63,623 nucleotides of DNA, filler included, from an uncultured Methanosarcinales archaeon (GCA_964608065.1; 5 parts of 5 records of this genome joined end to end with filler, not necessarily neighbours in it), one strand, 5' to 3'; counted from the whole stretch's first letter, positions 13,360 through 52,128 are shown. The notes: generated by a model from the letters alone, not told the origin. Program-made: numbers and translations.

Positions 13360-13459
13360 NNNNNNNNNNNNNNNNNNNNNNNNNNNNNNNNNNNNNNNNN
13401 NNNTTAATTAATTAANNNNNNNNNNNNNNNNNNNNNNNNNNNNNNNNNNNNNNNNNNNN
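13360..13459. other. Artificial contig linker
   Basis: N-run containing TTAATTAATTAA. Confidence 0.99.
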
Positions 13460-15763: not shown

Positions 15764-16498
15764 ATGACTTTAAAAGATTTTAAAAGAAACTTAGAAAGGT
15801 TTGAGAATCTAATCAAAAGTATAGAAAGCGATAAAAAAAAAGGGGGAATGAAGAAGAGATTTGATTTTAGTGAGAACAAACTGCAGTATTATATCAATTC
15901 TGCAAAAAGTGCTTTTAAGGATTTAAAAGATAGTTTATGGGACCTACACTATTTGGTCAAAGATAATAAAAAAAATGAAGAAATTTATCTGGAAATAGTC
16001 AAAGACATCAAAGATATAGAAAGCAAAGACAACAAGAAATCACTTGAAATAATAAGTAAGACAAAAGAAAAAATAAAAAAAATTAAAGAAGTTGAAGAAG
16101 ACATTAATTTAGACATAAAATTTATTCCTACAGATGTCAGAGCTGATGTCAATGCTGATATTCAGGAATTAAGAAAATGTTATAAAGCTGGTTGTTACAG
16201 AAGCTCTGTAATCTTATGCGGAAGATTATTAGAAACTGCATTGCACAGAAAATATTACGAGATAACAGGTCAGGATATTTTAGAAAAAAATCCTGGAATT
16301 GGTCTGGGCAAATTAATAGCTAAACTATCTGAAAAAGAAGTCAAATTTGATCCAGGTGTTAAAGAACAGATTCATGTAATAAATAATATAAGGATCCAGT
16401 CAGTTCACAAGAAAAAAGACGCTTTTTATCCAGGTAAATCACAAGCATATGCCATAATGCTATTTACAACAGATGTTTTAGAGAAGTTGTTCAAATGA
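15764..16498 (+). CDS. DUF4145/HEPN-like domain protein
   Basis: 'CY..SVILCGRLLE', 'R.QSVH' RxxxxH-like motif. Confidence 0.65.
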   Translation: MTLKDFKRNLERFENLIKSIESDKKKGGMKKRFDFSENKLQYYINSAKSAFKDLKDSLWDLHYLVKDNKKNEEIYLEIVKDIKDIESKDNKKSLEIISKTKEKIKKIKEVEEDINLDIKFIPTDVRADVNADIQELRKCYKAGCYRSSVILCGRLLETALHRKYYEITGQDILEKNPGIGLGKLIAKLSEKEVKFDPGVKEQIHVINNIRIQSVHKKKDAFYPGKSQAYAIMLFTTDVLEKLFK

Positions 16499-26498: not shown

Positions 26499-26598
26499 NN
26501 NNNNNNNNNNNNNNNNNNNNNNNNNNNNNNNNNNNNNNNNNNTTAATTAATTAANNNNNNNNNNNNNNNNNNNNNNNNNNNNNNNNNNNNNNNNNNNN
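26499..26598. other. Artificial contig linker
   Basis: N-run containing TTAATTAATTAA. Confidence 0.99.
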
Positions 26599-26640
26599 AT
26601 AGAATACTTAATAAATGATAAGAATTTGTATTATTTTCTT

Positions 26641-27063
26641 ATGAAAGACATACTATTAAGATATTTTAGATATAAAATAAATGCTTGTCCTTGGATAGAC
26701 ATTTCAATAATAAGAACTGAAAGACAAAATTTAGATGAAAGTGCAAAGAAACTTTTAGGTTTATATTCAAGAATAGAGAAAAATGAAGATATTTCTTTAA
26801 TGTTAAATGAATTAGAAGATAAAATTACAGTAAAAACCAATTTAATTAAAATTTGCTCTACTTGTTTACCCCAAGATTATGCTAATGAATTTCCTAATGG
26901 TCCTTTTGGTCTAGGTTATGGGAATTATTTTACAGCATTACCTAAAACAGAAAATAAATTAAATGACGAAGAATATATTAGAAGAGAACTGGAATTACAT
27001 AAAAATCTATACCCCTTATTTGTAGAATTTGCTAGAACCAATAAATTCAGGAACATCATATAA
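26641..27063 (+). CDS. Hypothetical protein
   Basis: 140-aa ORF with no recognisable motif. Confidence 0.5.
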   Translation: MKDILLRYFRYKINACPWIDISIIRTERQNLDESAKKLLGLYSRIEKNEDISLMLNELEDKITVKTNLIKICSTCLPQDYANEFPNGPFGLGYGNYFTALPKTENKLNDEEYIRRELELHKNLYPLFVEFARTNKFRNII

Positions 27064-27103
27064 CAAAGATTTAATAAATAAAGAGATTTTATCTAAGATA
27101 ATA

Positions 27104-28921
27104 ATGGTAAAAGAAACAATAACTAAGGCAGTTGCAGATTCCTCTATAATCACTGGAGGAATTCTTTCAAAAAGAATACAATCTAAAGAAATTTCTGTTT
27201 CAGAACTAATTATTCCAGAAGCTTTCATTTCAGTATTTGAACACATGGCTGGAAATGAAAAAGCCGTAGGTTTTATTGGTTTAGACGAATTAAAAGAATT
27301 AAGGGACATATTAGGGGATAAATTACATTTCAAAGGCAAACGTCCAACAGAATATGAAATAAAATATTTGAATTTGATTGGTTTAGATTCCTTAGCAAGA
27401 CAATTAGCATTTGATGAAGGTGCTATACTAATAACAACCAGTGATACAAAAGCTAATACAGCAGAAGCAAACGGCATTAAATCTTTATTGATTACAGCAG
27501 AGAAAGAATCAGTAATAACTAAATTGGAAAAATTATTTGATGAAACAACAATGAGTGTACATCTTAAAGAATCTTTAATCCCTTATGCAAAAAAAGGCAA
27601 GCCTGGCGAATGGAAATTCATGCCTATTCAAAAAGAGCCATTATCAAAAAAAGAAATAAAAGAGATTTCTCAAGAGATTATTGAAAGCCCAAGATTAAGA
27701 GATGATGCATTTATTGAAATTGAAAGAACTGGTAGCACAATAGTACAAATGGGATTGTTCAGGACAGTAATTACTCGTCCACCTTTCAGCGATGGCTGGG
27801 AAATTACTGCATCTCGTCCAATAAGAAAGTTGGACTTCAAGGAGTATAATATGAGCCCAGAACTTAAAGAAAGAATTATGCATGAAGCTTCAGGCTTAGT
27901 AATTGCAGGAGCCCCAGGATCTGGTAAAACAACTTTCGCAAGCGCATTAGCAGAATTTTATGCATCTATGGATAAGATTGTAAAAACAATTGAAGCTCCT
28001 CGTGACATGATATTAGGTCCTAAGATTACCCAGTATGCAATAAGCCACGGTGATGCTCAAGAAATTCATGACATATTATTATTATCAAGACCAGATTACA
28101 GTGTTTTTGATGAAATGCGTAACACATCAGACTTTGAATTATTCATAGATTTAAGATTAGCAGGAATTGGTTTAGCAGGAGTTATACACGCAACAAAACC
28201 TATTGACGCAGTTCAAAGATTTATTACAAGGACAGAATTAGGAGTTATCCCGCAAGTTATTGATACTTTGATTTTTATAGATAAAGGACAAATTGGAAAA
28301 GTTTTAAGCATTAACATGGCAGTCAAAGTTCCAACAGGTATGACTGAAGCAGACTTAGCTAGGCCAGTAGTAGAAGTAAAAGATTTTGAAACAAAACAAC
28401 TTGAATATGAAATGTACACTTATGGTGAACAAACAGTCATGATTCCTGTTATAGGTATTAGCCAAAAAAAATCAGGCATGAACAATTTAGCTGTAAGACA
28501 AATTGAAAATGCTTTTTCTAATTTAACTGATTCAGCTGAAGCAGAAATGGTAAGCCAACATAAAGCAATTGTTTATGTTGCTGATAAAGATCTTCCAAGA
28601 ATAATTGGTAAGCAAGGAAAAAATATTGAACAAATTGAGAAAGAACTAGGCATAAGAATTCAACTGGAGCCTATACAAAGTAAATCGAGACCTAACCAAA
28701 AAGCAATTAAATATAATTTAAAAGAGAGAGGCAATTATATCATCTTTAATACAGACAGAGGCGGAGACTCTATTGACACTTTCGTTGATGATGCTTATTT
28801 GTTTACATCAACAACAAGCAAGAAAGGTGAAATTAAAATTAACAAAAAAAGTCAACTTGGAAAATCTTTAATAAAAGCTCTTGATTTGAACAAAAAAATT
28901 GATTTAAAGGTGTCTGCATAA
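27104..28921 (+). CDS. PIN-ATPase-KH protein (PINA/MJ1533 family)
   Basis: N-terminal PIN, GAPGSGKTT, RPDY..FDEMR, KH 'IIGKQG'. Confidence 0.93.
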   Translation: MVKETITKAVADSSIITGGILSKRIQSKEISVSELIIPEAFISVFEHMAGNEKAVGFIGLDELKELRDILGDKLHFKGKRPTEYEIKYLNLIGLDSLARQLAFDEGAILITTSDTKANTAEANGIKSLLITAEKESVITKLEKLFDETTMSVHLKESLIPYAKKGKPGEWKFMPIQKEPLSKKEIKEISQEIIESPRLRDDAFIEIERTGSTIVQMGLFRTVITRPPFSDGWEITASRPIRKLDFKEYNMSPELKERIMHEASGLVIAGAPGSGKTTFASALAEFYASMDKIVKTIEAPRDMILGPKITQYAISHGDAQEIHDILLLSRPDYSVFDEMRNTSDFELFIDLRLAGIGLAGVIHATKPIDAVQRFITRTELGVIPQVIDTLIFIDKGQIGKVLSINMAVKVPTGMTEADLARPVVEVKDFETKQLEYEMYTYGEQTVMIPVIGISQKKSGMNNLAVRQIENAFSNLTDSAEAEMVSQHKAIVYVADKDLPRIIGKQGKNIEQIEKELGIRIQLEPIQSKSRPNQKAIKYNLKERGNYIIFNTDRGGDSIDTFVDDAYLFTSTTSKKGEIKINKKSQLGKSLIKALDLNKKIDLKVSA

Positions 28922-29664
28922 TGTTATACTTAATAGGATTAGGATTAGGTGATGAAAAAGATATCACAGTTAAAGGATTAGAAATTATTAGAAAATGTAA
29001 TTTTATTTATTTAGAAGCTTATACTTCTAAACTGCAAGTTGATATTAAAAACTTAGAAGATTTTTATGGTAAGAAAGTAATTCCTGCGGACAGAGAACTA
29101 GTTGAAAAAAGATTAGATGAAGAAATAATCTCAAAAGCAAAAGAAAACGATGTTGCTTTGCTAATTATAGGTGATGTATTCTCTGCCACAACCCACAACG
29201 CAGTTTTAGAAAGTGCTAAAGAAAAAGAAGTTGAAGTTAAAATCATACACAACACTTCAATCTTAACAGTAGTAGGAGATACTGGATTGTCATTATACAA
29301 ATTTGGCAAAACTGCCTCTATTCCTTTTGATAATGCAGAAGTTGAAGCACCTTATGATGTTTTGGTTGAAAACAAAGACATGCATACTTTATTTTTATTA
29401 GACTTAAATCCTTTGGCAGATAAGTTTATGACAGTCAAGGAAGCTATTGAGTATCTTTTAGTAGTTGAAGCTAAACGAAAATGCAAGGAGTTTGATGAAG
29501 AGAGTAAATGTGTAGGTTGTGCAGCTTTAGGCACAGATAATGCAGAGATTGTTTACGGCACAGCTAAGGAAGTTATGAAAGCTAAGTTAACTAAGTTTCC
29601 GCAATGCTTGATAGTTCCTGGAAAGCTACATTTCATGGAAGAAGAATTCTTAAATACGCTTTAG
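28921..29664 (+). CDS. dph5: Diphthine synthase
   Basis: LYLIGLGL, LEAYTS, GD.FSATTH, YKFG, HTL.LLD, PG.LHFME. Confidence 0.96.
   Translation: MLYLIGLGLGDEKDITVKGLEIIRKCNFIYLEAYTSKLQVDIKNLEDFYGKKVIPADRELVEKRLDEEIISKAKENDVALLIIGDVFSATTHNAVLESAKEKEVEVKIIHNTSILTVVGDTGLSLYKFGKTASIPFDNAEVEAPYDVLVENKDMHTLFLLDLNPLADKFMTVKEAIEYLLVVEAKRKCKEFDEESKCVGCAALGTDNAEIVYGTAKEVMKAKLTKFPQCLIVPGKLHFMEEEFLNTL
29627..29662 (+). repeat. attL of integrative element (3' end of dph5)
   Basis: tacatttcatggaagaagaattcttAaatacgcttt, 35/36 identical to 38797-38832. Confidence 0.92.
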
Positions 29665-29755
29665 TTATAAAGAATTTACCTAAATTTTACCTTAAATTTA
29701 CCTGTTTTTTACTTTGATTTTTGTTAGGGTCACTTTGAGGAAATCTTTAAAATAT

Positions 29756-30748
29756 TTAAACAGGATTTTGGATAAGAAATATCCAACGACGCCGATTAAA
29801 TTTATTAAACAATAAATTTGGGACTTTATCTAAAATACCAGCCATTGTCGCACCACTTGCTGAACCTAAAATAGTTCCTCCCATCGACCCCAAATTTGAG
29901 CCTACAATTCCACCAAATAATGCTCCTACAATAGGGCTTAGAGTCTTATTTACATCAGCATACTTTTTATACTTTTGAGCAAGTTTATTGAAATCATTTA
30001 CTAAATTACTTGATACGTCAGCTGTAAAATCTTCATTAGTTAACTGTGCCTTATGGATAGTATTTTCTAAAAAATTAGTGAAATGAGTTCTAAGAGGATC
30101 AGCCCTAAATATATTTATCTTATCAATTGGTAAACCTTTAGGTAACATAATATTTACATCATTAAGAAAAGTCCCCACTTCTAAAGTGTGTTTAAGCATA
30201 GGGTTAGGAGGAGAATAAAGTAATCCTAATTTTCTGAGATGATAAAACCATAATTGCAAATATTGTGGATTCAAAATCATTGGAACATCAAAAGTTTGTG
30301 AAAATATTGTATCCCATGCTATTGTCAAAGAGAGATTATCAACTGCATTATAGAGATCAGTATTATTAGGCTTTAGAATCTTACTTACCATCCAACGAAA
30401 TTTTTTATCTTTTCTATTATTCTCAACCAATGAACTATAAGACTGTTGAAAAAATGTTTCTTGGAAAATATTCTTCCTAGCAATATAATTTCCACTTTCA
30501 AGAATTTCAGAAGGTAAGATAGTATCATCAATCACTACTGGGAGGATAAAACCTTCAGTTATAAATTGGCACATCCTTTCAGAAAAATCGGACTTCTGAT
30601 TACAAAAGCATAACGCTTTATCTGTAAGAAGAGGTAAAGTATCTAAATAAAAATTATGGAAATCGGGAGTGTTCGCCGGATCAACATAAACAATTATTCC
30701 TTTCCCAATAAGACGCTTAACTCGATTATATTCACTTAGTTTTATCAT
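29756..30748 (-). CDS. Hypothetical protein with C-terminal glycine-zipper membrane segment
   Basis: 'IVGALFGGIVGSNLGSMGGTILGSASGATMAG'; overlaps upstream gene. Confidence 0.75.
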   Translation of the reverse strand: MIKLSEYNRVKRLIGKGIIVYVDPANTPDFHNFYLDTLPLLTDKALCFCNQKSDFSERMCQFITEGFILPVVIDDTILPSEILESGNYIARKNIFQETFFQQSYSSLVENNRKDKKFRWMVSKILKPNNTDLYNAVDNLSLTIAWDTIFSQTFDVPMILNPQYLQLWFYHLRKLGLLYSPPNPMLKHTLEVGTFLNDVNIMLPKGLPIDKINIFRADPLRTHFTNFLENTIHKAQLTNEDFTADVSSNLVNDFNKLAQKYKKYADVNKTLSPIVGALFGGIVGSNLGSMGGTILGSASGATMAGILDKVPNLLFNKFNRRRWIFLIQNPV

Positions 30749-31775
30749 CTTCCTCAAGATTTCCTTTAAATAATTTTCTTAATTCTGTTATAGATTCAAA
30801 TCTAAATTTTCCACTATCCAGCAGATTCATATCATCAAACCATAATTCTGGATTAGAATCTTCAAAAAATAAAACTGCTCCTTTCTCTGTTTTAAATATT
30901 TTAATCTTGTCTTCCAGATAACCTAAAGGAAACTTTAAACTAAAATTAGGATATATATCTAAATCAACTTTCATAATTTGATTAAATCCTTGCTTGTCTT
31001 TATCCTTCAATTCAACAATAGAAGATGTAGAGTTCAAAAGTTTCTTTACTTCTTCTATTGGACTCTTTGGTCGTTCAAGACCTATAGCATCACAAACTAT
31101 ATTCGCTTTTTCAGTTAAAACATGGAGTTTAGCCTTATCAAAATCTTGTTCATAGCCTATTTTGGAATCAGGAGTTTTAAGAGGATCTTGAGAGAAATAT
31201 AAATAAGGATAGATAAAAGTTGTATGGAAATCCTGTCTTAAAGCTTTCTCTAAGTATTTTAACAAAGCATTCTCATCATAATGTAAAATATCATTCTCAT
31301 AATCAGTTATAAGAATTCCTAAAAACCTATGAAGAATTTTATTAATAGGTATAGTAAATTGGGAGAATATTAAAATTCCCTTTGTAGCTTTTAATTGATT
31401 AGCTAAAGTATTCCCTAATTCTGAACAAAGATATTTAAAAGAATCATCATCTGTGCATGTCAAGATTTCTGCATAATTCTGCTTTTTTGAATTATTAGTT
31501 AAAGATTGAACATAAGAAGTTGGTTTCGCCCCTTGTTGCTGATCTTGAAAAATCTCCAAAGCGGGTTTAACTGCAAAACCTCCACGTTTAGGCAAAAAGT
31601 TTGTTTCCATGCCTCCAAACTTTCTTTTGAGATTCCTTCCTAAACAAAGTAATAAAGAATCCAAACGTTGTGAGCTTCTTGAAATGCTTATTGTTTGTAG
31701 GTGATCTATTCTTGAAATTGTTCTTTCTCGGATACATTCAAAAAGAGAAACCCTACTTATTTTTAGTTCTGCCAT
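30732..31775 (-). CDS. Hypothetical protein (weak resemblance to NdpA/KwaB-like families)
   Basis: 347 aa, GAGGTGA RBS; 'GILIF..F......FLGILITDYE' pattern. Confidence 0.7.
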   Translation of the reverse strand: MAELKISRVSLFECIRERTISRIDHLQTISISRSSQRLDSLLLCLGRNLKRKFGGMETNFLPKRGGFAVKPALEIFQDQQQGAKPTSYVQSLTNNSKKQNYAEILTCTDDDSFKYLCSELGNTLANQLKATKGILIFSQFTIPINKILHRFLGILITDYENDILHYDENALLKYLEKALRQDFHTTFIYPYLYFSQDPLKTPDSKIGYEQDFDKAKLHVLTEKANIVCDAIGLERPKSPIEEVKKLLNSTSSIVELKDKDKQGFNQIMKVDLDIYPNFSLKFPLGYLEDKIKIFKTEKGAVLFFEDSNPELWFDDMNLLDSGKFRFESITELRKLFKGNLEEDDKTK

Positions 31776-31887
31776 AATTTCACCTCAATATTTAATCTTC
31801 CAGAAGAAATGGAGGAAGAGTATTTAAAGTTTTTGTAGATTTACGAGGACAAAACAATTTTTATTTCTTTTAATGTTTCTTATGGAA

Positions 31888-32040
31888 CTATTCCTTCTTC
31901 TTCATATATCCTTGCTCAGAAAGATAAGCTACAACAATATTTCTTACAATTTCGGAATCTTTCTCACCAATCTTGCCTTTTAGCTCACCTTCAATAATCT
32001 TCCATGCACCATCCGGTAAACTAACTAAGACTCTTTTCAT
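31888..32040 (-). CDS. CopG/RHH regulator (50 aa, absent from ORF track)
   Basis: MKRVLVSLPDGAWKIIEGELKGKIGEKDSEIVRNIVVAYLSEQGY. Confidence 0.8.
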   Translation of the reverse strand: MKRVLVSLPDGAWKIIEGELKGKIGEKDSEIVRNIVVAYLSEQGYMKKKE

Positions 32041-32182
32041 AGGATTAATAATAATTTTGGATTTTATATGTTTTATGATTCATGTATATACATTATATAA
32101 TATATATAAGCTACATTTATATATTCTTTATGTCTTAGAAGTATCATTAATGATATAAACAAGTAATAAAGGAGGAAACAAT

Positions 32183-32326
32183 ATGAAAATGATTTTTGAC
32201 TTACCAAACGACATAACACCCATATTAGAAGAGGTATGCAGGATAGACTGCAGAACAAAGACAGGCATTGCTAGGATTGCAATAAAGAAGTATTGTGAAT
32301 ATATTTTAAACAATGAAAAAGCTTGA
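32183..32326 (+). CDS. RHH regulator (47 aa, absent from ORF track)
   Basis: GGAGG RBS; MKMIFDLPNDITPILEEVCRIDCRTKTGIARIAIKKYC. Confidence 0.7.
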   Translation: MKMIFDLPNDITPILEEVCRIDCRTKTGIARIAIKKYCEYILNNEKA

Positions 32327-32726
32327 TTTCAAATATACAGAAAAAGTAGATGCTATCTCAAAAGCTACAAAGCTCATAGAGTTATGCAAACTGCAAAGCT
32401 TCAAGCCAGAAGAATTGACAAGAATGATGTCTAGGATAGACAATGTAAAAAGAGGCTATATTAAAAGTGAATTAACAAAACTAGAACAAAATATCTTTGA
32501 AAGAATAATAGAATATGATATTTCTATAAGGCAGGCTAGAGATTGGTTCAAAGCATTATGTCTAAGACCTAGGTTACAAGAAAAGATTAAACAAAGAAAA
32601 TTACCATTAAAAGCTGCAATTAAAATTAATAATGAAATCCTATTCAAATCAAGATTAACAAAAGAAAAAATCTTAGAAGAAATAAAAGAAGCATTTGAGG
32701 AGTTGGATGATATAAATGAAGCGTAA
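32313..32726 (+). CDS. Hypothetical protein in integrase operon
   Basis: 137-aa basic helical ORF overlapping both neighbours. Confidence 0.7.
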
Positions 32727-33456
32727 AACCTTGCCTGACTACATTGAAGTTCCTAAGCTTAGAAAATTGTTCAGAGTTATAGATCGTCCAATGTATGCAA
32801 TAGCTTTTGCCATATGCTTCTTCTGTGGACTAAGAGCAACAGAAACTTGCAAGCTAAAGAAATCAGATGTTAATTTAGAACAAAAAAGATTGAAAGTAGT
32901 TAATGGAAAAAATAGTAAAGATAGATTTGTCCCAATACCTGTTGCAATCATCAGACCATTAGGCATGTGGATGAAATATTCAGGAAATTCAAGCTATTTG
33001 TTTCCATCAAGATCAAATTCATATTCAAGAAAAGAAAACAACCATATTCAAAGGAATGAGTTAAGAAGACGTTTCAATGAATATTCTTATTTAGCAGAAA
33101 TTAATGATGTCATAAGAAGAGATGCTAAAGGTAGAAAAATGCATCGCTATTATGTCCACAGTTTAAGGCATAGTTATGCAACTTATCTTTTAGAGCATGG
33201 AGCTAACATAAGAGAAGTTCAGGAGTTGTTAGGACATGCTGACATTAACTCTACCATGATTTATACTCACATTACTATGAAGAACAAAATGAAAGCTGTG
33301 AATACTGCTTTCAATCAAATAATGGAAAATAAAAGTAAGCCAGTTGAAGAAAATCCTAGCAACATAAGAATTGTTCTTAAGAAAAGACTTGCTTCAGGCG
33401 AAATTAGCTTGAAAGAATATGATGAAATTATTAGAAGATTAGATGAAGAGGTGTAA
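32716..33456 (+). CDS. Tyrosine recombinase/integrase (catalytic domain + SHOCT-like tail)
   Basis: [28 protein letters not shown]; '[14 protein letters not shown]'. Confidence 0.93.
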
Positions 33457-33458
33457 AA

Positions 33459-33956
33459 ATGAATTTTATATGTTTTGATATTGAAACAACTGGATTAGAT
33501 CCTATTAAAGATAGGATTACTGCAATAGGAGTAAAAAACTGTTATGGTGAAGAAGCATTAATAGACAAGGACGAGAAATTTATTCTGGAAGAATTTTGGA
33601 AGATGATTGCAAAGAAATATCCTTATTTCAGATTAGTCGGTTTTAACTGTCTTGGTTTTGATATGCCTTTCATATTGATAAGAAGTTTCAAGCATGGAGT
33701 AAAAGTGTTTGATGTGAGAGGCAAAGTTATAGATTTAAGGTTTGTATTATCTCATGGAAACAGGTATCAGCAAGGAAAGCTAGAAGATTATGCTGCGCTT
33801 ATTGGGTTAGACACTAAGTATAATGGTTATGATGGAGCTGATGCTATTAAATTATGGAAGAATAAGCAGTTAATGGAACTAGAGAAGTATGTTTTGAGTG
33901 ATGTGCAGATTACTTATGGAATTTATAAGAGAATTAAAGAGGTTGGATTATTATGA
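33459..33956 (+). CDS. DnaQ/PolB-type 3'-5' exonuclease (RNase H-like fold)
   Basis: FDIETTG, GFN...FD.PF, Y..SDV. Confidence 0.88.
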   Translation: MNFICFDIETTGLDPIKDRITAIGVKNCYGEEALIDKDEKFILEEFWKMIAKKYPYFRLVGFNCLGFDMPFILIRSFKHGVKVFDVRGKVIDLRFVLSHGNRYQQGKLEDYAALIGLDTKYNGYDGADAIKLWKNKQLMELEKYVLSDVQITYGIYKRIKEVGLL

Positions 33957-34042
33957 ACAGATTTACAACTTTCCCGAAAATCTTTCAAAAAATAAAAGCA
34001 AAGAATATAAGGAAGTTACATAATTAAAAAAGTAAGGATAAA

Positions 34043-35020
34043 ATGAAGGTGGTATCATTATTCTCCGGATGCGGAGGAATGGATTTAGGATTTATAAAAG
34101 CAGGGCATCAACTGGTATGGGTAAATGACAATGATAGTGATAGCCTAGAAACATATAAAGATTATTTTTGTAAAAAACTAGGAATGGATACAAACCATGT
34201 TTGCTTAGAAAATATAGAGAAAGTTAAAACTGATAATATACCTGATTGTGATGTTGTAATTGGAGGTTTTCCATGTCAAGGTTTTTCAATGGCTAACCCT
34301 TATAGGCATACAGAAGATAATAGAAATAAATTATATATAGAATTATTAAGAGTAATAAAGGAAAAAAAGCCAAAATATTTTATTGCTGAGAATGTGCCTG
34401 GTATTTGTTCTATTGGTGGTTATGAAACAAAAGAAGATAAAAAGAATCATGAAGGTAGAATTTTTAAAATGATTCTTAATGAATTAAGAAATGCAAATGA
34501 AATGGGTTACTATGTGAAATTTAAAATTTTAAATGCTGCAGATTTTGGGGTGCCTCAGACTAGAAGAAGAGTCATTATATTGGGCACGAGGAAAGATATT
34601 GAACCAAAATTAATGCACCCTGAACCAACGCATGATAAAAATTCATCAAAAAAAAATCATCAATGGAAAACAGTTAAAGATGCTTTAATAGGAATTCCTG
34701 AAAAACCTGACGAGAAGATACCAAATCATTTAGGAACTTCTCACAAGGTAACAATTAATGGTTATCTTGGAAATCGACCCACTAATCCAAATAAGCCTTC
34801 ACCTACAATTGCTGGAAGAGGTGGAGGAACTGGGGGGCCAGTTATTATTCCTCATCCAAATTTGAAAAGAAGAATGACGGTAAGAGAAACTGCTAGAATT
34901 CAATGCTTTCCTGATGACTTTATTTTTAAAGGCTCTATATCTTCCCAATATCGGCAAATAGGCAATGCTGTTCCTTGGCCTTTAGCTTATAATATTGCAC
35001 TCATGCTCCCATATGAATAA
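34043..35020 (+). CDS. DNA (cytosine-5) methyltransferase
   Basis: LFSGCGG, GGFPCQ, ENV, Q.R.R, R.Q.FPD, QIGNAVP. Confidence 0.96.
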   Translation: MKVVSLFSGCGGMDLGFIKAGHQLVWVNDNDSDSLETYKDYFCKKLGMDTNHVCLENIEKVKTDNIPDCDVVIGGFPCQGFSMANPYRHTEDNRNKLYIELLRVIKEKKPKYFIAENVPGICSIGGYETKEDKKNHEGRIFKMILNELRNANEMGYYVKFKILNAADFGVPQTRRRVIILGTRKDIEPKLMHPEPTHDKNSSKKNHQWKTVKDALIGIPEKPDEKIPNHLGTSHKVTINGYLGNRPTNPNKPSPTIAGRGGGTGGPVIIPHPNLKRRMTVRETARIQCFPDDFIFKGSISSQYRQIGNAVPWPLAYNIALMLPYE

Positions 35021-35024
35021 AGAA

Positions 35025-35711
35025 TTATTCTTCTAAGTCTTTTTTTAGAAATTCAAATATTTCTTTTTTTATTTTTTTATCAGCATCCTTAACTCTATCC
35101 TGCAGTGTGATTATTTTTATATCTTTATTTTTTGCCCCTTCATTACATACATTGCACATTGTAATAAAATCTTCTTTTGTTAATTTTTTGTCCTCTTTTA
35201 TTTCTTCAATCCTTTCCCATTCAATTGTATCTTTATTATTCTTTCTCTTATGCGCAATAATATGGCCAACATGCAATTTAATTTTATGTCCTTTTTTGAA
35301 AGGGTCTTCATCTCCTTTAATCCTTCCACAGAATTGGCATTGATATCCATCCCTCTCAAAAACCTCAAACATAATTTTTTTATTTACGCCACGGCTCCTT
35401 ATATTCTTTGGATTTGGATCTTTCTTAAGCAAAACCCACTCATCCACTTTTAAATTAAAGCCACTAGTATCATTATCACGCCAATTAATAATTTCATAAC
35501 CCTTCTCATCACGTAATTCAAAGATTCTTCTTATATTGTGAGAAATTGGATTGCCTTTTTGACCTGTAATTCTTGCTAATTCTGCAGAAGTTATAATCTT
35601 GCCGACATTAAGTTTAAACCATTCAAGAGCTTTTTTAGTATATGATTCTCCTTCATATTGCTTCAGAAATTCATCCAAGCTTAGTTCTTTTTTTGTATTC
35701 TTTTTAAGCAT
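35025..35711 (-). CDS. HNH endonuclease, probable cognate restriction enzyme
   Basis: RD...CQFCG, LHVGH, MCNVCNEG; convergent with the C5 MTase. Confidence 0.82.
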   Translation of the reverse strand: MLKKNTKKELSLDEFLKQYEGESYTKKALEWFKLNVGKIITSAELARITGQKGNPISHNIRRIFELRDEKGYEIINWRDNDTSGFNLKVDEWVLLKKDPNPKNIRSRGVNKKIMFEVFERDGYQCQFCGRIKGDEDPFKKGHKIKLHVGHIIAHKRKNNKDTIEWERIEEIKEDKKLTKEDFITMCNVCNEGAKNKDIKIITLQDRVKDADKKIKKEIFEFLKKDLEE

Positions 35712-35820
35712 TTTTCTAAATCTAATTTTTATTTTATGTTCCTAAATCTCTAAAACTATATATCCTGTTTTATTTAATAATGTTTTATTCTTTTTATCTC
35801 TTTCCTTATTTTTTAAACAG
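35690..35820 (-). pseudogene. vsr: Remnant of Vsr/DUF559 endonuclease C-terminus
   Basis: KNKERDKKNKTLLNKTGYIVLEI*EH then frameshifted DLEKCLKRI; stop at 35742-35744 where W is expected. Confidence 0.6.
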
Positions 35821-35971
35821 TACCTATTTACTTTTAAAGCGCCTGATTCAAGTTTTAGCAACCACCATAAATTATTTTTTCTTATTTTAAGCCTATAAAC
35901 TCCCAAATTTAAAAATCCTTACTTCCCAAACAAGTGCCTAATCCACTATAAAACAGCTCAAAACTACTTAA

Positions 35972-37684
35972 TTAACAGATTAATTGAGTTACATAAACTT
36001 CACGATCTTTAGAAACAGCTACACCAATTCCTTCAGAATTATGAGTTGATTTAATTATTTTTTGTTCACTTTCTTTATCTTGGAATAAGCCTTCAACTAT
36101 AACAACTGCTAATTCATTAAGATTTAACCAATCATAACCTTCGGAAGAAATTGAATGATACACCTTAGTTTTAAAAACATTCTCAACTAAAGGTTGATAT
36201 TTGCTTTCACAAACAAATTTTTCTGCTTTAGCTTTTGAAATAAAATCTTCTCCATCTAAATCTTCCATAAACAAATTATCATTATTAGCCATTTCTAAGC
36301 TATGTTCCCTACACATAGAATTCATTTTTGTATTATATCCTATTTCAGATAATTTATATTTTGATCTTTCAACATTAATTAACCTATGAATCTCTTTAGC
36401 CAACCTACTTTGTTCCCAATAAGTCCAAAGAGGAAATTCCTCGTTAATTTTCCTTTGACCTATTGTTTCTTCATCAATATTAAAAATATTACCAAACATC
36501 ATTAAATTAGTGTTATAATATATATTCCATAATTCTTCATAAACAGAATTATAATCTCTAAGGTTATTATTAAATTTTAAAACATAAATATTATAGATAT
36601 CTGCATCATCACAAAAATTGCTAGTTGGATCTTCAAAGTAAGTCACACCATCTAAAGTATAACAAAAAACACAATCTGTTTGACACATCTTGCTTTGTAA
36701 TTCATTAAGAGTTTTATCAATTATTTCTAATTTGTCATCTAAATCATTTATTTGTTGATAGTTATTGTCTACAATATTAGCTAATTTAGACCCATAATTT
36801 TGTTCAGAATAAATATTTTTACCATAATTAGTAGGTAAAAATCCTTCTATTTTAATATCACTTTCAGAACCAATTGGAGAAAAAAGAGTAGTTTCAATAA
36901 AACAGATTTGTTCTCCATTATGTTCTAAATTACCTTTATTACAAACAATCCCTACTAAAGCATGCTTTACTTCTTCACTATCTCCAAAAATAATATAAGA
37001 AGTATAATTTAATTTTTTTAAAATCCCAGAAAGAATTACTGATTTATCCAAACAATTTCCTTCTATTTCATAAATAGTTTCATAAGGATATTTATTTAAT
37101 TCTCCTTCATCATTACCATAAGGAATTGACTGAACAAACAATGTTGCAATTTCCACAAGTTCATTAAGAGAATATCCTTCAGATTTCAATTTTTCAAAAT
37201 CTTTAGAAATAGCTTCTATAAATTGATTGTTATAATCATCTTTGAAATAAGATGCAATATAATTACTAGAAGATAGATTTCCATTAAAAAAACAACTCTT
37301 CCCTTTTAAATCAGAAGAATAATAATAAATATCTTCAAAAAGATTGACTTTATAACTAATTTTTTTATCTAAATAATTAAATTCTAATAGATTTTTATCT
37401 TCATTTGAAAAGTTGATTATTAATGGTTTTTTACAAAAATTTAAACAATCTTCTCCTTCACAATAATATTGTCCAGCCCAACCCAATCTTGGTTTTCCAA
37501 GTTCACTTAAATTTCCAGTTTCATATTCTGTATACATAAAATTATAAAAAGGAACAAAAGATAAATCTGAAAATTGAAAATTTCCTTTTGTATGATTTAA
37601 AATTTCTTTAGGATTTGTCCCTGTTTCTTGAAAACAACCACTTATTAAAAAAAGGAATAACAATAAAATCAATATTTTCTTCAT
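35972..37684 (-). CDS. Lipoprotein with transglutaminase-like and CAP/SCP domains
   Basis: Lipobox ISGC; 'FVQSIPY', 'GNCLDKS', 'HA.VG'; 'IN.ER...HS.EM...EN...GIGV...TQ'. Confidence 0.85.
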   Translation of the reverse strand: MKKILILLLFLFLISGCFQETGTNPKEILNHTKGNFQFSDLSFVPFYNFMYTEYETGNLSELGKPRLGWAGQYYCEGEDCLNFCKKPLIINFSNEDKNLLEFNYLDKKISYKVNLFEDIYYYSSDLKGKSCFFNGNLSSSNYIASYFKDDYNNQFIEAISKDFEKLKSEGYSLNELVEIATLFVQSIPYGNDEGELNKYPYETIYEIEGNCLDKSVILSGILKKLNYTSYIIFGDSEEVKHALVGIVCNKGNLEHNGEQICFIETTLFSPIGSESDIKIEGFLPTNYGKNIYSEQNYGSKLANIVDNNYQQINDLDDKLEIIDKTLNELQSKMCQTDCVFCYTLDGVTYFEDPTSNFCDDADIYNIYVLKFNNNLRDYNSVYEELWNIYYNTNLMMFGNIFNIDEETIGQRKINEEFPLWTYWEQSRLAKEIHRLINVERSKYKLSEIGYNTKMNSMCREHSLEMANNDNLFMEDLDGEDFISKAKAEKFVCESKYQPLVENVFKTKVYHSISSEGYDWLNLNELAVVIVEGLFQDKESEQKIIKSTHNSEGIGVAVSKDREVYVTQLIC

Positions 37685-37730
37685 AATTTATTTTAAAATA
37701 CCTTTATTTAAATATTCATCGAAAAAGATT

Positions 37731-38636
37731 TCAAGGAACTACTTCATAATATAAATGCACTTCTTGATCAGCTTCTACACCACCATGGAAATAGTGATTA
37801 TTATCATCTTTAATAAAAATAAAAAATACAGGGAAATTTATATAATCAGCAATAGTAACGTCCCAAATACAAGTATTTTCAGTTTGCCAACCCATATATC
37901 CTTGATTTGCACTAGAATAACAGTTATAATAAATTTTATCGTCTGTTGGATCTTTCGCATTAATTGTAAATGTTAATCTATCTCCCACATTAATTTTAGG
38001 TCGATTTCCATTAAAACAACCAGTATTAGCGATTACATCACATTGATTTCCTAAATTATCTTCAACTGAGACAACATATGGTGGCTCTAAACCTGAAATC
38101 TCTTCAGTTTCTTGTTCTTCAATAATCTCTTCTTCTACTTGACAAACTTCATGTTTGCATTCTTGCTTTTCGAAATCATAACTATCAGCAGTATTAGGAT
38201 TATTATCATTACAATTTTGTGGGCAATCAACACTTTTAACATCAGAGGCACTTACGGAACTTGCCCTGCCTAAGGGGTTTCCTGGACAAAAAGTTATAGC
38301 TCCCTTATATTCTCCTTCTTCACAAATCCCATTATTAGCACATGGCGTTATGGATTCATATTTACACTCATAATTTGTATCTTTTGAACAATAATCTTTA
38401 GTACAAATATTTAAATCTTCACAAGATTGATTACAAGTTTTACAAGGGATTGGACAACAATAAGATTCAATGACATCTAAATAAGAAACAGCACATTCAT
38501 CTGGCGCTGAACATAGATAACCTTGAAAATCTTGACAACTTTTTGTAATACCTTGCCAATCTTCTAAATCTTCTTGAGTACAACCCACTAAAAATATTAA
38601 TAATACTAATAAACTTAAAATTAATAACTTTCTCAT
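37731..38636 (-). CDS. Cysteine-rich lipoprotein with Ig-like C-terminus
   Basis: Lipobox LVGC; 'CEDLNICTKDYC', 'CNDNNPNTADSY' repeats. Confidence 0.8.
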   Translation of the reverse strand: MRKLLILSLLVLLIFLVGCTQEDLEDWQGITKSCQDFQGYLCSAPDECAVSYLDVIESYCCPIPCKTCNQSCEDLNICTKDYCSKDTNYECKYESITPCANNGICEEGEYKGAITFCPGNPLGRASSVSASDVKSVDCPQNCNDNNPNTADSYDFEKQECKHEVCQVEEEIIEEQETEEISGLEPPYVVSVEDNLGNQCDVIANTGCFNGNRPKINVGDRLTFTINAKDPTDDKIYYNCYSSANQGYMGWQTENTCIWDVTIADYINFPVFFIFIKDDNNHYFHGGVEADQEVHLYYEVVP

Positions 38637-38796
38637 AATTAACTTAATAATAAAACTCCTATAAAAATTAATCGTTAATTCACAACAAGCGCCTAATTCA
38701 ATAATAAAACAGCTAAAGATTAACAATCCATAACAAACATCAACTACAACTCTCCTAACATCAAAATTCTAAACTTAAACAACAAACGCCTAAAAT

Positions 38797-38832
38797 TACA
38801 TTTCATGGAAGAAGAATTCTTGAATACGCTTT
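38797..38832 (+). repeat. attR of integrative element (duplicated dph5 3' end)
   Basis: tacatttcatggaagaagaattcttGaatacgcttt; encodes the same LHFMEEEFLNTL tail, then TGA. Confidence 0.92.
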
Positions 38833-38867
38833 GAAGCTTTAGGCGCTTAAAGAAAATATTTTAAATA

Positions 38868-38911
38868 TATTGTCCACAAAATAGAAATGCTTATAAAGAT
38901 TGTGGACAATA
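38868..38911. promoter_or_regulatory. Operator-like inverted repeat flanking a TATA box
   Basis: TATTGTCCACAA-N20-TTGTGGACAATA with TTATAAA inside, directly upstream of the Fic gene. Confidence 0.65.
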
Positions 38912-38919
38912 AAATATCC

Positions 38920-39315
38920 ATGGCTTATATTGATAAGATTAAATCAGGAAACAAAACATTTTACTATTTAGGAAAAACATTAAGATTAGGTCCAAATAAA
39001 TGGAAGAAAATAAGAATTAAATTAGGAAGTAAAAAACCAACAGAAAAAGAAATAGCAAATAAATTAAAAGAATTGAAACTTGAAGAATATAAAATATATA
39101 ATAAAGATTATATTGATGAAAATAAGTTAGAAATAATTGATGATTTTAAAGAAGTTTATAATAATCATTTAAAAGAAATCCCTAAAACAATTATTGAAAA
39201 GGAAGAATCTGACTTCTTAATAAGATTTACTTATAACTCTAATGCTATTGAAGGAAATAGGCTCACATTAAGAGATACATAACTCATTATTAAAGAAAAA
39301 CAAATACCTTACGGT
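38920..39315 (+). CDS. Fic-family protein, N-terminal part (internal stop near contig end)
   Basis: 'FTYNSNAIEGNRLT..DT'; frame continues LIIKEKQIPYG after TAA 39280-39282. Confidence 0.7.
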
Positions 39316-39415
39316 NNNNNNNNNNNNNNNNNNNNNNNNNNNNNNNNNNNNNNNNNNNNTTAATTAATTAANNNNNNNNNNNNNNNNNNNNNNNNNNNNN
39401 NNNNNNNNNNNNNNN
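39316..39415. other. Artificial contig linker
   Basis: N-run containing TTAATTAATTAA. Confidence 0.99.
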
Positions 39416-52028: not shown

Positions 52029-52128
52029 NNNNNNNNNNNNNNNNNNNNNNNNNNNNNNNNNNNNNNNNNNNNTTAATTAATTAANNNNNNNNNNNNNNNN
52101 NNNNNNNNNNNNNNNNNNNNNNNNNNNN
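52029..52128. other. Artificial contig linker
   Basis: N-run containing TTAATTAATTAA. Confidence 0.99.

Follow-up and report, generated by a model that had tools for sequence, protein, structure and literature searches.

The duplicated end of dph5

We analysed a window of 63,623 nucleotides (the whole stretch of DNA under study, filler included) and, within it, a candidate integrative element of 9.2 kb at the 3' end of dph5, the gene for diphthine synthase. The window consists of five contigs from a single bin with N44-TTAATTAATTAA-N44 linkers between them, a point on which the original prediction was silent; the linkers lie at 13360-13459, 26499-26598, 39316-39415 and 52029-52128, and features are not readable across these joins. 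The element is located on a single contig of 12,717 bp (window 26599-39315, designated G000:C40). On this contig an ATPase gene is followed by dph5, whose last codons form the first copy of a repeat, and between the two repeat copies are a tyrosine integrase gene, a preceding open reading frame (ORF) of 137 codons (o137), a stand-alone exonuclease gene and cargo genes (Table 1).

The 36-bp direct repeat was confirmed, with 35 of 36 positions identical between 29627-29662 and 38797-38832. The pair extends to 41 nt (29622-29662 and 38792-38832; 38/41 identical), and the two copies share an exact block of at most 25 nt (29627-29651). When the 12,717-bp contig was simulated 200 times under a first-order Markov model, the longest exact direct repeats measured 13-19 nt, which indicates that the repeat is not random. 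The repeat pattern occurred at these two sites only in the 1.40-Mb bin. Read from two codons upstream, both copies translate to KLHFMEEEFLNTL and a stop, TAG on the left and TGA on the right. The dph5 ORF matched the equivalog model TIGR00522 with 248.2 bits (cut-off 114.3) over profile positions 1-253 of 258. The claim that both copies encode the same C-terminus and that dph5 is kept intact was therefore upheld by translation and by the profile match. A tRNA gene as the target was excluded, as a tRNA scan of the window found none. Base composition did not distinguish the element from its surroundings.

The integrase matched PF00589 with 116.6 bits (cut-off 27.1) over residues 27-188. Tyrosine recombinases have an active site of the form R...HxxR...H/W...Y, and R40, H148, R151, H174 and Y183 of the integrase were invariant across 10 members of its family. 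In P. abyssi XerA (4a8e), the aligned counterparts of these motif residues lie in the stretches GLRVSE, HQLRHSFAT, LLGHS and IYT. Nine cluster-level relatives, 70-80% identical, are all of metagenomic origin.

Among the cargo genes, the methyltransferase gene and the gene for the HNH protein that matches REase_II are convergent neighbors and are predicted to form a type II restriction-modification pair. Together with two secreted proteins, this pair agrees with the earlier description of a small defence or surface island with no visible replication, capsid or conjugation genes. An AT-rich gap separates the 50-aa ORF on the minus strand from the 47-aa ORF that opens the integrase operon; neither ORF had a Pfam or NCBIfam match.

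Table 1. Genes and sites at the dph5 locus, in window positions
Feature	Position	Strand	Remarks
PIN/PilT/KH-type ATPase, host flank	27029..28921	+	NF010335, 729.6 bits; 81% identical to G468 orthologue
dph5 (diphthine synthase), intact, 247 aa	28921..29664	+	TIGR00522; last codons and stop in left repeat copy
attL, left repeat copy	29627..29662 (extends to 29622)	+	contains CAYTTYATGGAR
Left arm	29665..29745	+	TTATAAAG, then four TTTAC(C) boxes, then TTTTG..GGG..C.TTGAGGAAA
Cargo ORF, 333 aa	29756..30757	-	glycine-rich hydrophobic C-terminus; no family match
Cargo ORF, 347 aa	30732..31775	-	no family match
50-aa ORF, divergent from integrase operon	31888..32040	-	ribbon-helix-helix-like by eye only
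47-aa ORF, first in integrase operon	32183..32326	+	ribbon-helix-helix-like by eye only
o137, helical, 137 aa	32313..32726	+	11-nt overlap with integrase start
Tyrosine integrase, 246 aa, catalytic domain only	32716..33456	+	PF00589; weak SHOCT-like C-terminal tail
Stand-alone 3'-5' exonuclease (predicted), DEDD-type, 165 aa	33459..33956	+	DNA_pol_B_exo2 / RNase_H_2
C5 cytosine DNA methyltransferase, cargo	34043..35020	+	PF00145 2.4e-72; PADLOC MTase_II 9.4e-92
HNH-type protein, 228 aa, cargo	35025..35711	-	PADLOC REase_II 2.7e-11; PHROG HNH endonuclease 1.7e-5
570-aa protein, cargo	35972..37684	-	N-terminal signal/lipobox-like start; C-terminal CAP domain 5.8e-6
Cysteine-rich secreted-type protein, cargo	37731..38726	-	64%-identical homologue in integrase-less second element of L037
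Right arm	38682..38796	+	two direct ACAACAARCGCCTAA boxes, 38682 and 38779
attR, right repeat copy	38797..38832 (extends to 38792)	+	displaced dph5 tail, stop TGA
Fic-domain gene start, second mini-element ~1.16 kb	38887..39315	+	continues on G559:C119 (L070)

Related loci with the same integrase

JGI metagenome contigs were scanned with an alignment of the integrase relatives, that is, by integrase and not by dph5. Five close loci (L036 to L040) were obtained, with integrases 72-96% identical to that of the window. L036 and L039 are shorter than 2.4 kb, too short to show element ends. The three loci with enough flank (L037, L038 and L040) all carry dph5 or its tails in the same arrangement. 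Because the loci were found through the integrase, their linkage to dph5 is an independent test, and it supports the predicted integrative element at the dph5 3' end. The survey of dph5 tails with related integrases, which the original prediction had proposed as a check, is thus borne out at 3 of 3 loci.

In L038, dph5 (TIGR00522, 269 bits) lies 5.3 kb upstream of the o137 and integrase genes in the same orientation. In L040, dph5 (TIGR00522, 243 bits) lies 3.5 kb upstream of the same gene pair, again in the same orientation, and further tails are present at 15808, 19520 and 20636; the four tails bound a 9.3-kb integrase element, a 3.7-kb element and a 1.1-kb remnant. The contig of L037 begins within an integrase 96% identical to that of the window and has two dph5 tails, the second of which closes an integrase-less element that shares the cysteine-rich protein of the window. 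The integrase-less 3.7-kb element of L040 (15808-19559) contains PIN_2, helix-turn-helix (HTH) and MazE-type genes and is flanked by a 46-bp dph5-tail repeat with 44 of 46 positions identical. It may be mobilised in trans by the integrase of its neighbor.

The host dph5 genes of the related loci are 53-57% identical to that of the window, compared to 72-80% for the integrase and 77-78% for o137; across integrase, o137 and exonuclease the range is 70-80%. For the window contig and for L040 (65%), the nearest reference genomes belong to family f140, and for L038 (60%) to family f153. Since the element genes are more similar than the housekeeping target, these comparisons of sequence point to horizontal movement of the element.

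Only the small ORFs, o137, integrase and exonuclease recur across the window, L037, L038 and L040. The 50-aa ORF is kept in L038, L040 and, in part, L037, the 47-aa ORF is kept in L036, L038 and L040, and the exonuclease gene adjoins the integrase gene in L037, L039 and L040. Cargo differs from locus to locus. L037 has a different type II pair (MTase_II 2.6e-141 and REase_II 3.8e-67), and L038 has a viperin-like radical SAM protein (1.7e-18) with HTH and MazE-type proteins. L040 has two N6/N4 methyltransferases with two ORFs of no assigned family and a QatC/QueC-like protein, and the second and third members of its array carry PIN, MazE-type and nucleotidyltransferase genes. The 333-aa and 347-aa cargo ORFs of the window had no counterpart in L037, L038 or L040. 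So few recurring genes combined with variable cargo suggest a minimal chassis for integration that carries interchangeable defence genes, and count against a virus or a self-replicating plasmid. At 10742-12056 of L038, the exonuclease gene ends after 58 codons and is followed by a DDE_Tnp_ISAZ013 transposase gene (4.2e-117), which looks like an insertion sequence that landed within the element core.

Host, tandem array and attachment-site motifs

The bin contains a second dph5 (G000:C23:15260-15994) that is 57% identical to the copy on C40; it is 80% identical to, and syntenic with, the gene of same-genus genome G001. A second PIN/PilT/KH ATPase gene (G000:C2:13201-15045) is likewise present, 55% identical to the C40 copy, and matches the same-genus genome. 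The ATPase of C40 is 81% identical to that of G468, a genome of the same class and of another order (family f140), where dph5 (80%) directly follows. Neither dph5 nor the ATPase gene was present in G559, which is in the same genus as G468 and 94% complete. The first 233 bp of contig G559:C119 are 99.1% identical to the end of G000:C40. Because dph5 and the ATPase gene are duplicated in the bin, C40 resembles f140, G559 has neither gene and the two contigs overlap, G000:C40 is probably mis-binned and derives from a G559-like archaeon of the same class. This leaves the repeat finding unaffected and changes the host. The DPANN or Woesearchaeota label of the host was drawn from two sources only, the source names of distant integrase homologues and an Atlas taxon label, and is used here with that reservation.

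On G559:C119, the ORF that begins at 38887 runs on to form a full Fic-domain gene (3.8e-20) in a mini-element of about 1.16 kb. Past it lie two right-arm boxes, followed by a third dph5 tail (HFMEEEFLQHYGKS) at position 908 of this locus (L070), then a fourth, decayed tail (KLPFIEEEFLNAL) at 1225, a second Fic gene, an arm-like stretch and a radical SAM gene. The window and G559:C119 together have 4 dph5 tails, as does L040, and L037 has 2. Judged from this order of tails, the window element is presumably the dph5-proximal and youngest member of a tandem array. The earlier description accordingly held as to an integrative element and required revision on two points, the element appearing to be the first member of an array and not a lone insertion, and its contig being probably mis-binned. 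The Fic gene is bracketed by inverted repeats TTGTCCACA...TGTGGACAA (window 38869-38910; L070 754-792) that may serve as operators or terminators.

Parts of the stretch were matched in six groundwater runs belonging to four coded studies; X1, X3, X4 and X5 (three studies) were compared, as Logan assembled contigs only. In most pieces the run contigs agree with the window sequence at 99% or more. The TAA at 39280-39282, which closes a 131-aa ORF in the window, reads TAC in all four runs compared and in G559:C119, with C in place of A at 39282, and the Fic ORF stays open. The stop in the window probably reflects an error of assembly or else a rare variant. Apparent joints at 27994>35055, 29239>29732 and 37210>38115 had short sides of 21-22 nt and were treated as noise.

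In G468, the ATPase gene is followed by dph5 with tail KLHFMEEEFLNSK, the one match to the tail pattern in the whole genome. No integrase was found in the 2 kb downstream of dph5; methyltransferase fragments and an LD-carboxypeptidase are located there. The tail pattern was also surveyed across the order of G000, with the reservations that it catches only about one quarter of dph5 genes and that the host belongs to another order: 95 of 400 other genomes matched, and none had two copies on one contig. The unpublished genomes G315, G209, G244, G207 and G501 were counted only in this order-wide survey and in the tallies of the ATPase comparison. Two tail-pattern matches on different contigs were observed in G256 (C1:26082 and C4:463918) and in G212 (C8:10908 and C22:18555); split elements, a second copy of dph5 or contamination could each account for them.

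The only stretch common to the intact tails of the window, L038, L040, L070 and G468 and to the second L037 tail is CAYTTYATGGAR, of about 12 nt, from which the first tail of L037 and the fourth of L070 deviate. Past the EEE codons the tail C-termini diverge (FLNTL, FLQLYGKS, FLKTFSL, FLERFSL, SDFLKHYGN.. and YLQIYHDNIGLTKN), suggesting that with each insertion the enzyme receives different final residues. Following the dph5 stop, the window has TT(T)ATAAAG/TTTATGAG in common with L038 and L040, and in the latter two the stop codon lies inside this stretch. Four TTTAC(C)-type boxes and the block TTTTG..GGG..C.TTGAGGAAA are also common to these three loci, and the left arm is partly kept in L037. 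In the window the four boxes begin at 29675, 29686, 29697 and 29708, an exact 11-bp phase. Two direct ACAACAARCGCCTAA boxes about 97 bp apart precede the displaced tails in the window, at both L037 ends and at the second L040 tail, and the second box of the window abuts the repeat core.

The integrase, its candidate partner and the origin of the element

The integrase aligned with XerA 4a8e over residues 99-276 only (E 5.4e-25) and with the XerA model NF040815 over positions 90-258 of 263 (118.8 bits, E 2.9e-34), where the equivalog cut-off of 220 was not reached. No PF02899 or PF13495 match, and hence no N-terminal core-binding (SAM-like) domain, was found in it. The 10 close members of its family are all 243-249 aa. 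The uniform length, together with the XerA match that starts at residue 99, indicates that the gene lacks the N-terminal core-binding domain and is not a truncated form. The last approximately 25 residues weakly resemble SHOCT, below the cut-off (E 0.0013).

The integrase gene always follows that of o137, and in the window and in L040 the two overlap by 11 nt. Thirteen relatives of o137 were found, all at least 70% identical, and a search of 1.84 billion representative proteins gave only 2 clusters. There was no Pfam match, and no fused longer form was found, which is weak evidence. The AlphaFold model of o137 is all-helical, with a predicted local distance difference test (pLDDT) score of 84.8. 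The top four VIA rows were Spo0J, ParB and KorB (two entries), with root-mean-square deviations of 3.6-8.1 over 76-97 residues, and an Atlas lead gave HTH_ParB at 0.91, a family present in 37% of the members of that cluster. The predicted complex of o137 with the integrase scored 0.81, compared to 0.02 for the best of 3 controls; of 157 solved complexes, 116 reached this mark, as did 2 of 215 mismatched pairs. The runs shared at least 91% of contacts, and the pLDDT of the partner was at least 82. Contacts were predicted between o137 residues 113-136 and integrase residues 11-36, 75-88 and 157-161. This modelling supports, but does not demonstrate, binding of o137 to the integrase through its C-terminal helix. 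We infer that o137 is the DNA-binding subunit, supplied in trans, of a two-part integrase, and that it probably reads the phased arm boxes.

A similar layout was seen in G546 (C14:550-1687, L067) and G545 (C8:2577-3899, L068), where integrases with only a catalytic domain, 34-35% identical to that of the window and with a SHOCT-like end, do not lie beside dph5. Each is preceded by a 128-aa helical ORF. The 128-aa ORF of G546 had no sequence similarity to o137 by hhalign; its model is weaker (pLDDT 67.1) and has the same helix order and the same top four VIA rows (Z 5.0-4.4). A like layout and partner fold before integrases so distant suggest an old and widespread split architecture. That a DPANN family of defence islands is driven by a two-subunit integrase, a catalytic-only recombinase with a ParB/KorB-like arm reader clamped by its C-terminal helix, is a reading that we hold tentatively and consider a little more apt to be wrong than right.

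As for the insertion itself, the locus very probably holds a site-specific integrative element that entered the 3' end of dph5 by a tyrosine-recombinase crossover and displaced the old tail as attR. A circular element of about 9.1 kb would recombine, through its copy of the core, with the core in the last codons of dph5 (around CAYTTYATGGAR, coding HFMEE). The left end of the element would supply the remaining codons and the stop, leaving dph5 whole, and the old tail would remain as attR. The regenerated gene end would keep the core, which would allow further entries and tandem arrays with the newest member nearest dph5. The conserved machinery would consist of the integrase, o137, the exonuclease and a divergent pair of small regulator-like ORFs, and the remaining genes would be exchangeable cargo, mostly for defence. 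We infer both this crossover and a present-day mobility of the element.

Several observations weigh against this account of integration at dph5. The integrase gene is about 3 kb from attL and not beside an att site, the contig ends 483 bp past the right repeat copy, leaving a short right flank within the window, and the array was pieced together across one 233-bp overlap with a contig of another bin. No close homologue of the integrase was present in 37 genomes of the host family (best E 4e-45); neither of the two best distant matches checked there adjoins dph5, and a pattern scan of GTDB species representatives gave only an unrelated bacterial match. No excision product (a skip of about 9,170 bp) or circle junction was found among the listed Logan contigs, and none of these contigs bridges either repeat copy, so that this negative says nothing as to their absence. 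G468 is an unoccupied locus in a related genus and not a precise attB, at about 80% protein identity, and no empty site of the same species was found among the genomes examined. The account also assigns no role to the conserved exonuclease. For o137, no sequence relatives were detected beyond this element family, the best Foldseek rows (Noc/ParB, E 0.2) are a weak match, and the VIA scores (Z 6.0-5.1) are below the caution line of the tool for helical models.

The X1 contig that covers the left flank breaks off at 29651, and the one at the right end breaks off at 38826. We would guess that these ends fit a coexisting allele of dph5 with its old tail, that is, an empty site, in a k=31 graph. 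X1 also has, at about 29627-29726, a second left-arm variant with nine differences between 29659 and 29695 and a depth of 7.19 of 21.8. The variant resembles the arm type of L038 and L040; in the X1 sample, another member of the element family may occupy this gene end.

The missing excision product would also be expected of a decayed, immobile island, in which one ancestral integration left relic repeats and was followed by vertical inheritance with cargo turnover. The degenerate array neighbors (the 1.16-kb Fic mini-element and the decayed tail KLPFIEEEFLNAL) and the exonuclease gene cut by a transposase gene in L038 agree with this explanation. However, the repeat copies differ at 1 of 36 positions, the integrase retains all of its motif residues, and the locus is unoccupied in a related genus. 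The higher identity of the integrases than of host dph5 is the opposite of what vertical descent predicts, and the second left-arm variant in X1 is present at about one third of local depth. We therefore regard a decayed island as unlikely.

An integrated virus or plasmid, with replication or structural genes among the ORFs of 333, 347, 570 and 331 aa or in the exonuclease, is considerably less probable than a decayed island. Four ORFs have no family match, proteins of archaeal viruses often elude profile searches, and a gene resembling a PolB exonuclease is conserved with the integrase. The unannotated ORFs are nevertheless not conserved between elements, except for the cysteine-rich protein in L037. 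Among the 18 proteins scanned from this and the related elements, none had a match to a structural or packaging PHROG, a test that archaeal virion proteins may elude, and the integrases in a collection of viral contigs are only 25-30% identical.

A chimeric join at a short repeat that created the second tail or one of the junctions is hardly credible: the contig is of metagenomic origin and probably placed in the wrong bin, the right copy is close to its end and the run contigs break at both copies, but the same architecture is present in three independent metagenome contigs from other samples, runs from four studies (three compared) contain parts of the stretch, the 25-nt exact block is shorter than the usual assembly k-mers, and arm motifs flank the copies as they would real att sites.

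Site-specific insertion at dph5 has known counterparts. Islands that target tRNA genes and lambda-type attP sites also carry the 3' end of the target, have arm boxes on both sides of the core and form arrays. In contrast, the dph5 element targets a protein-coding gene, and its integrase has no arm-binding domain with which to read the arm boxes. Archaeal XerA (P. abyssi 4a8e and NF040815) is the best solved and the best NCBIfam match of the catalytic domain, whereas the integrase gene of the window is borne by an element, is variable in presence and is flanked by att repeats. To our knowledge, mobile elements of DPANN archaea have barely been described, and their hosts are not genetically tractable. 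In the literature searched, no integrase target in diphthine synthase or dph5 was found, no such elements in Woesearchaeota were described as judged by title and abstract, and DPANN with tyrosine recombinase yielded only Asgard or nanohaloarchaeal elements.

Krupovic et al. (2019; PMC6563490) placed 14 of 68 thaumarchaeal elements at the 3' ends of protein-coding genes. The kind of target that the original prediction called unusual, a protein-coding attB, thus has archaeal precedent at gene 3' ends. The paper likewise describes direct-repeat att sites, insertion at the end of a coding gene, tandem integrations at one site and cryptic integrated elements without replication or structural genes, all as in the window, and in NitEve-E2 the reading frame and stop are closed by element-derived sequence. 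One of the 14, NitDev-E5 (7.5 kb), is inserted in a gene annotated as 'diphthamide biosynthesis protein'. It differs in belonging to another phylum and in having an att of 16 bp that touches the last 4 nt of the gene, compared to 36-41 bp and 11-13 codons here. Its target is dph5 or another dph gene, and PMC6563490 reports no recurrent family aimed at the gene.

A review of archaeal tyrosine recombinases (PMC8371274) also notes protein-coding attB sites. In the haloarchaeal virus SNJ2, as outlined in that review, IntSNJ2 is similarly co-transcribed with two small helpers, one of them DNA-binding, that raise integration. There, however, the target is a tRNA gene and the helpers are described as non-essential, while the integrase of the window has no N-terminal domain and the predicted docking site of its partner is the catalytic domain. 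The 'suicidal' integrases of SSV type (PMC7253208) are also archaeal element-borne tyrosine recombinases. Their att site is inside the integrase gene, which is split upon integration; the integrase ORF of the window (32716-33456) is whole, with the repeats at 29627 and 38797. The kind of element is therefore known; the dph5 target, the host group and the apparent two-subunit integrase are new variations, the last being the freshest.

A compact recurrent element with a defined attachment site in a protein-coding gene, conserved arms and a core of five genes provides a marker for the flow of defence genes between uncultured lineages. The dph5 island is a candidate integration tool should its host become cultivable, and a test case for a tyrosine recombinase whose DNA-binding half is a separate protein. 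If insertion at dph5 occurs as proposed, the core in the conserved HFMEE codons would let islands cross host families, and every insertion would rewrite the last residues of an essential enzyme that modifies a translation factor. Duplicated marker genes in a bin can also flag a mis-binned contig of greater biological interest.

Within the cargo, the two ORFs at 29756-30757 and 30732-31775 overlap, and neither has a family match. For the 333-aa ORF, the Atlas look-alikes are bacterial hypothetical proteins (0.97), with DUF6236 in 10% of one cluster. The overlapping pair may be a two-gene defence or membrane-acting cargo.

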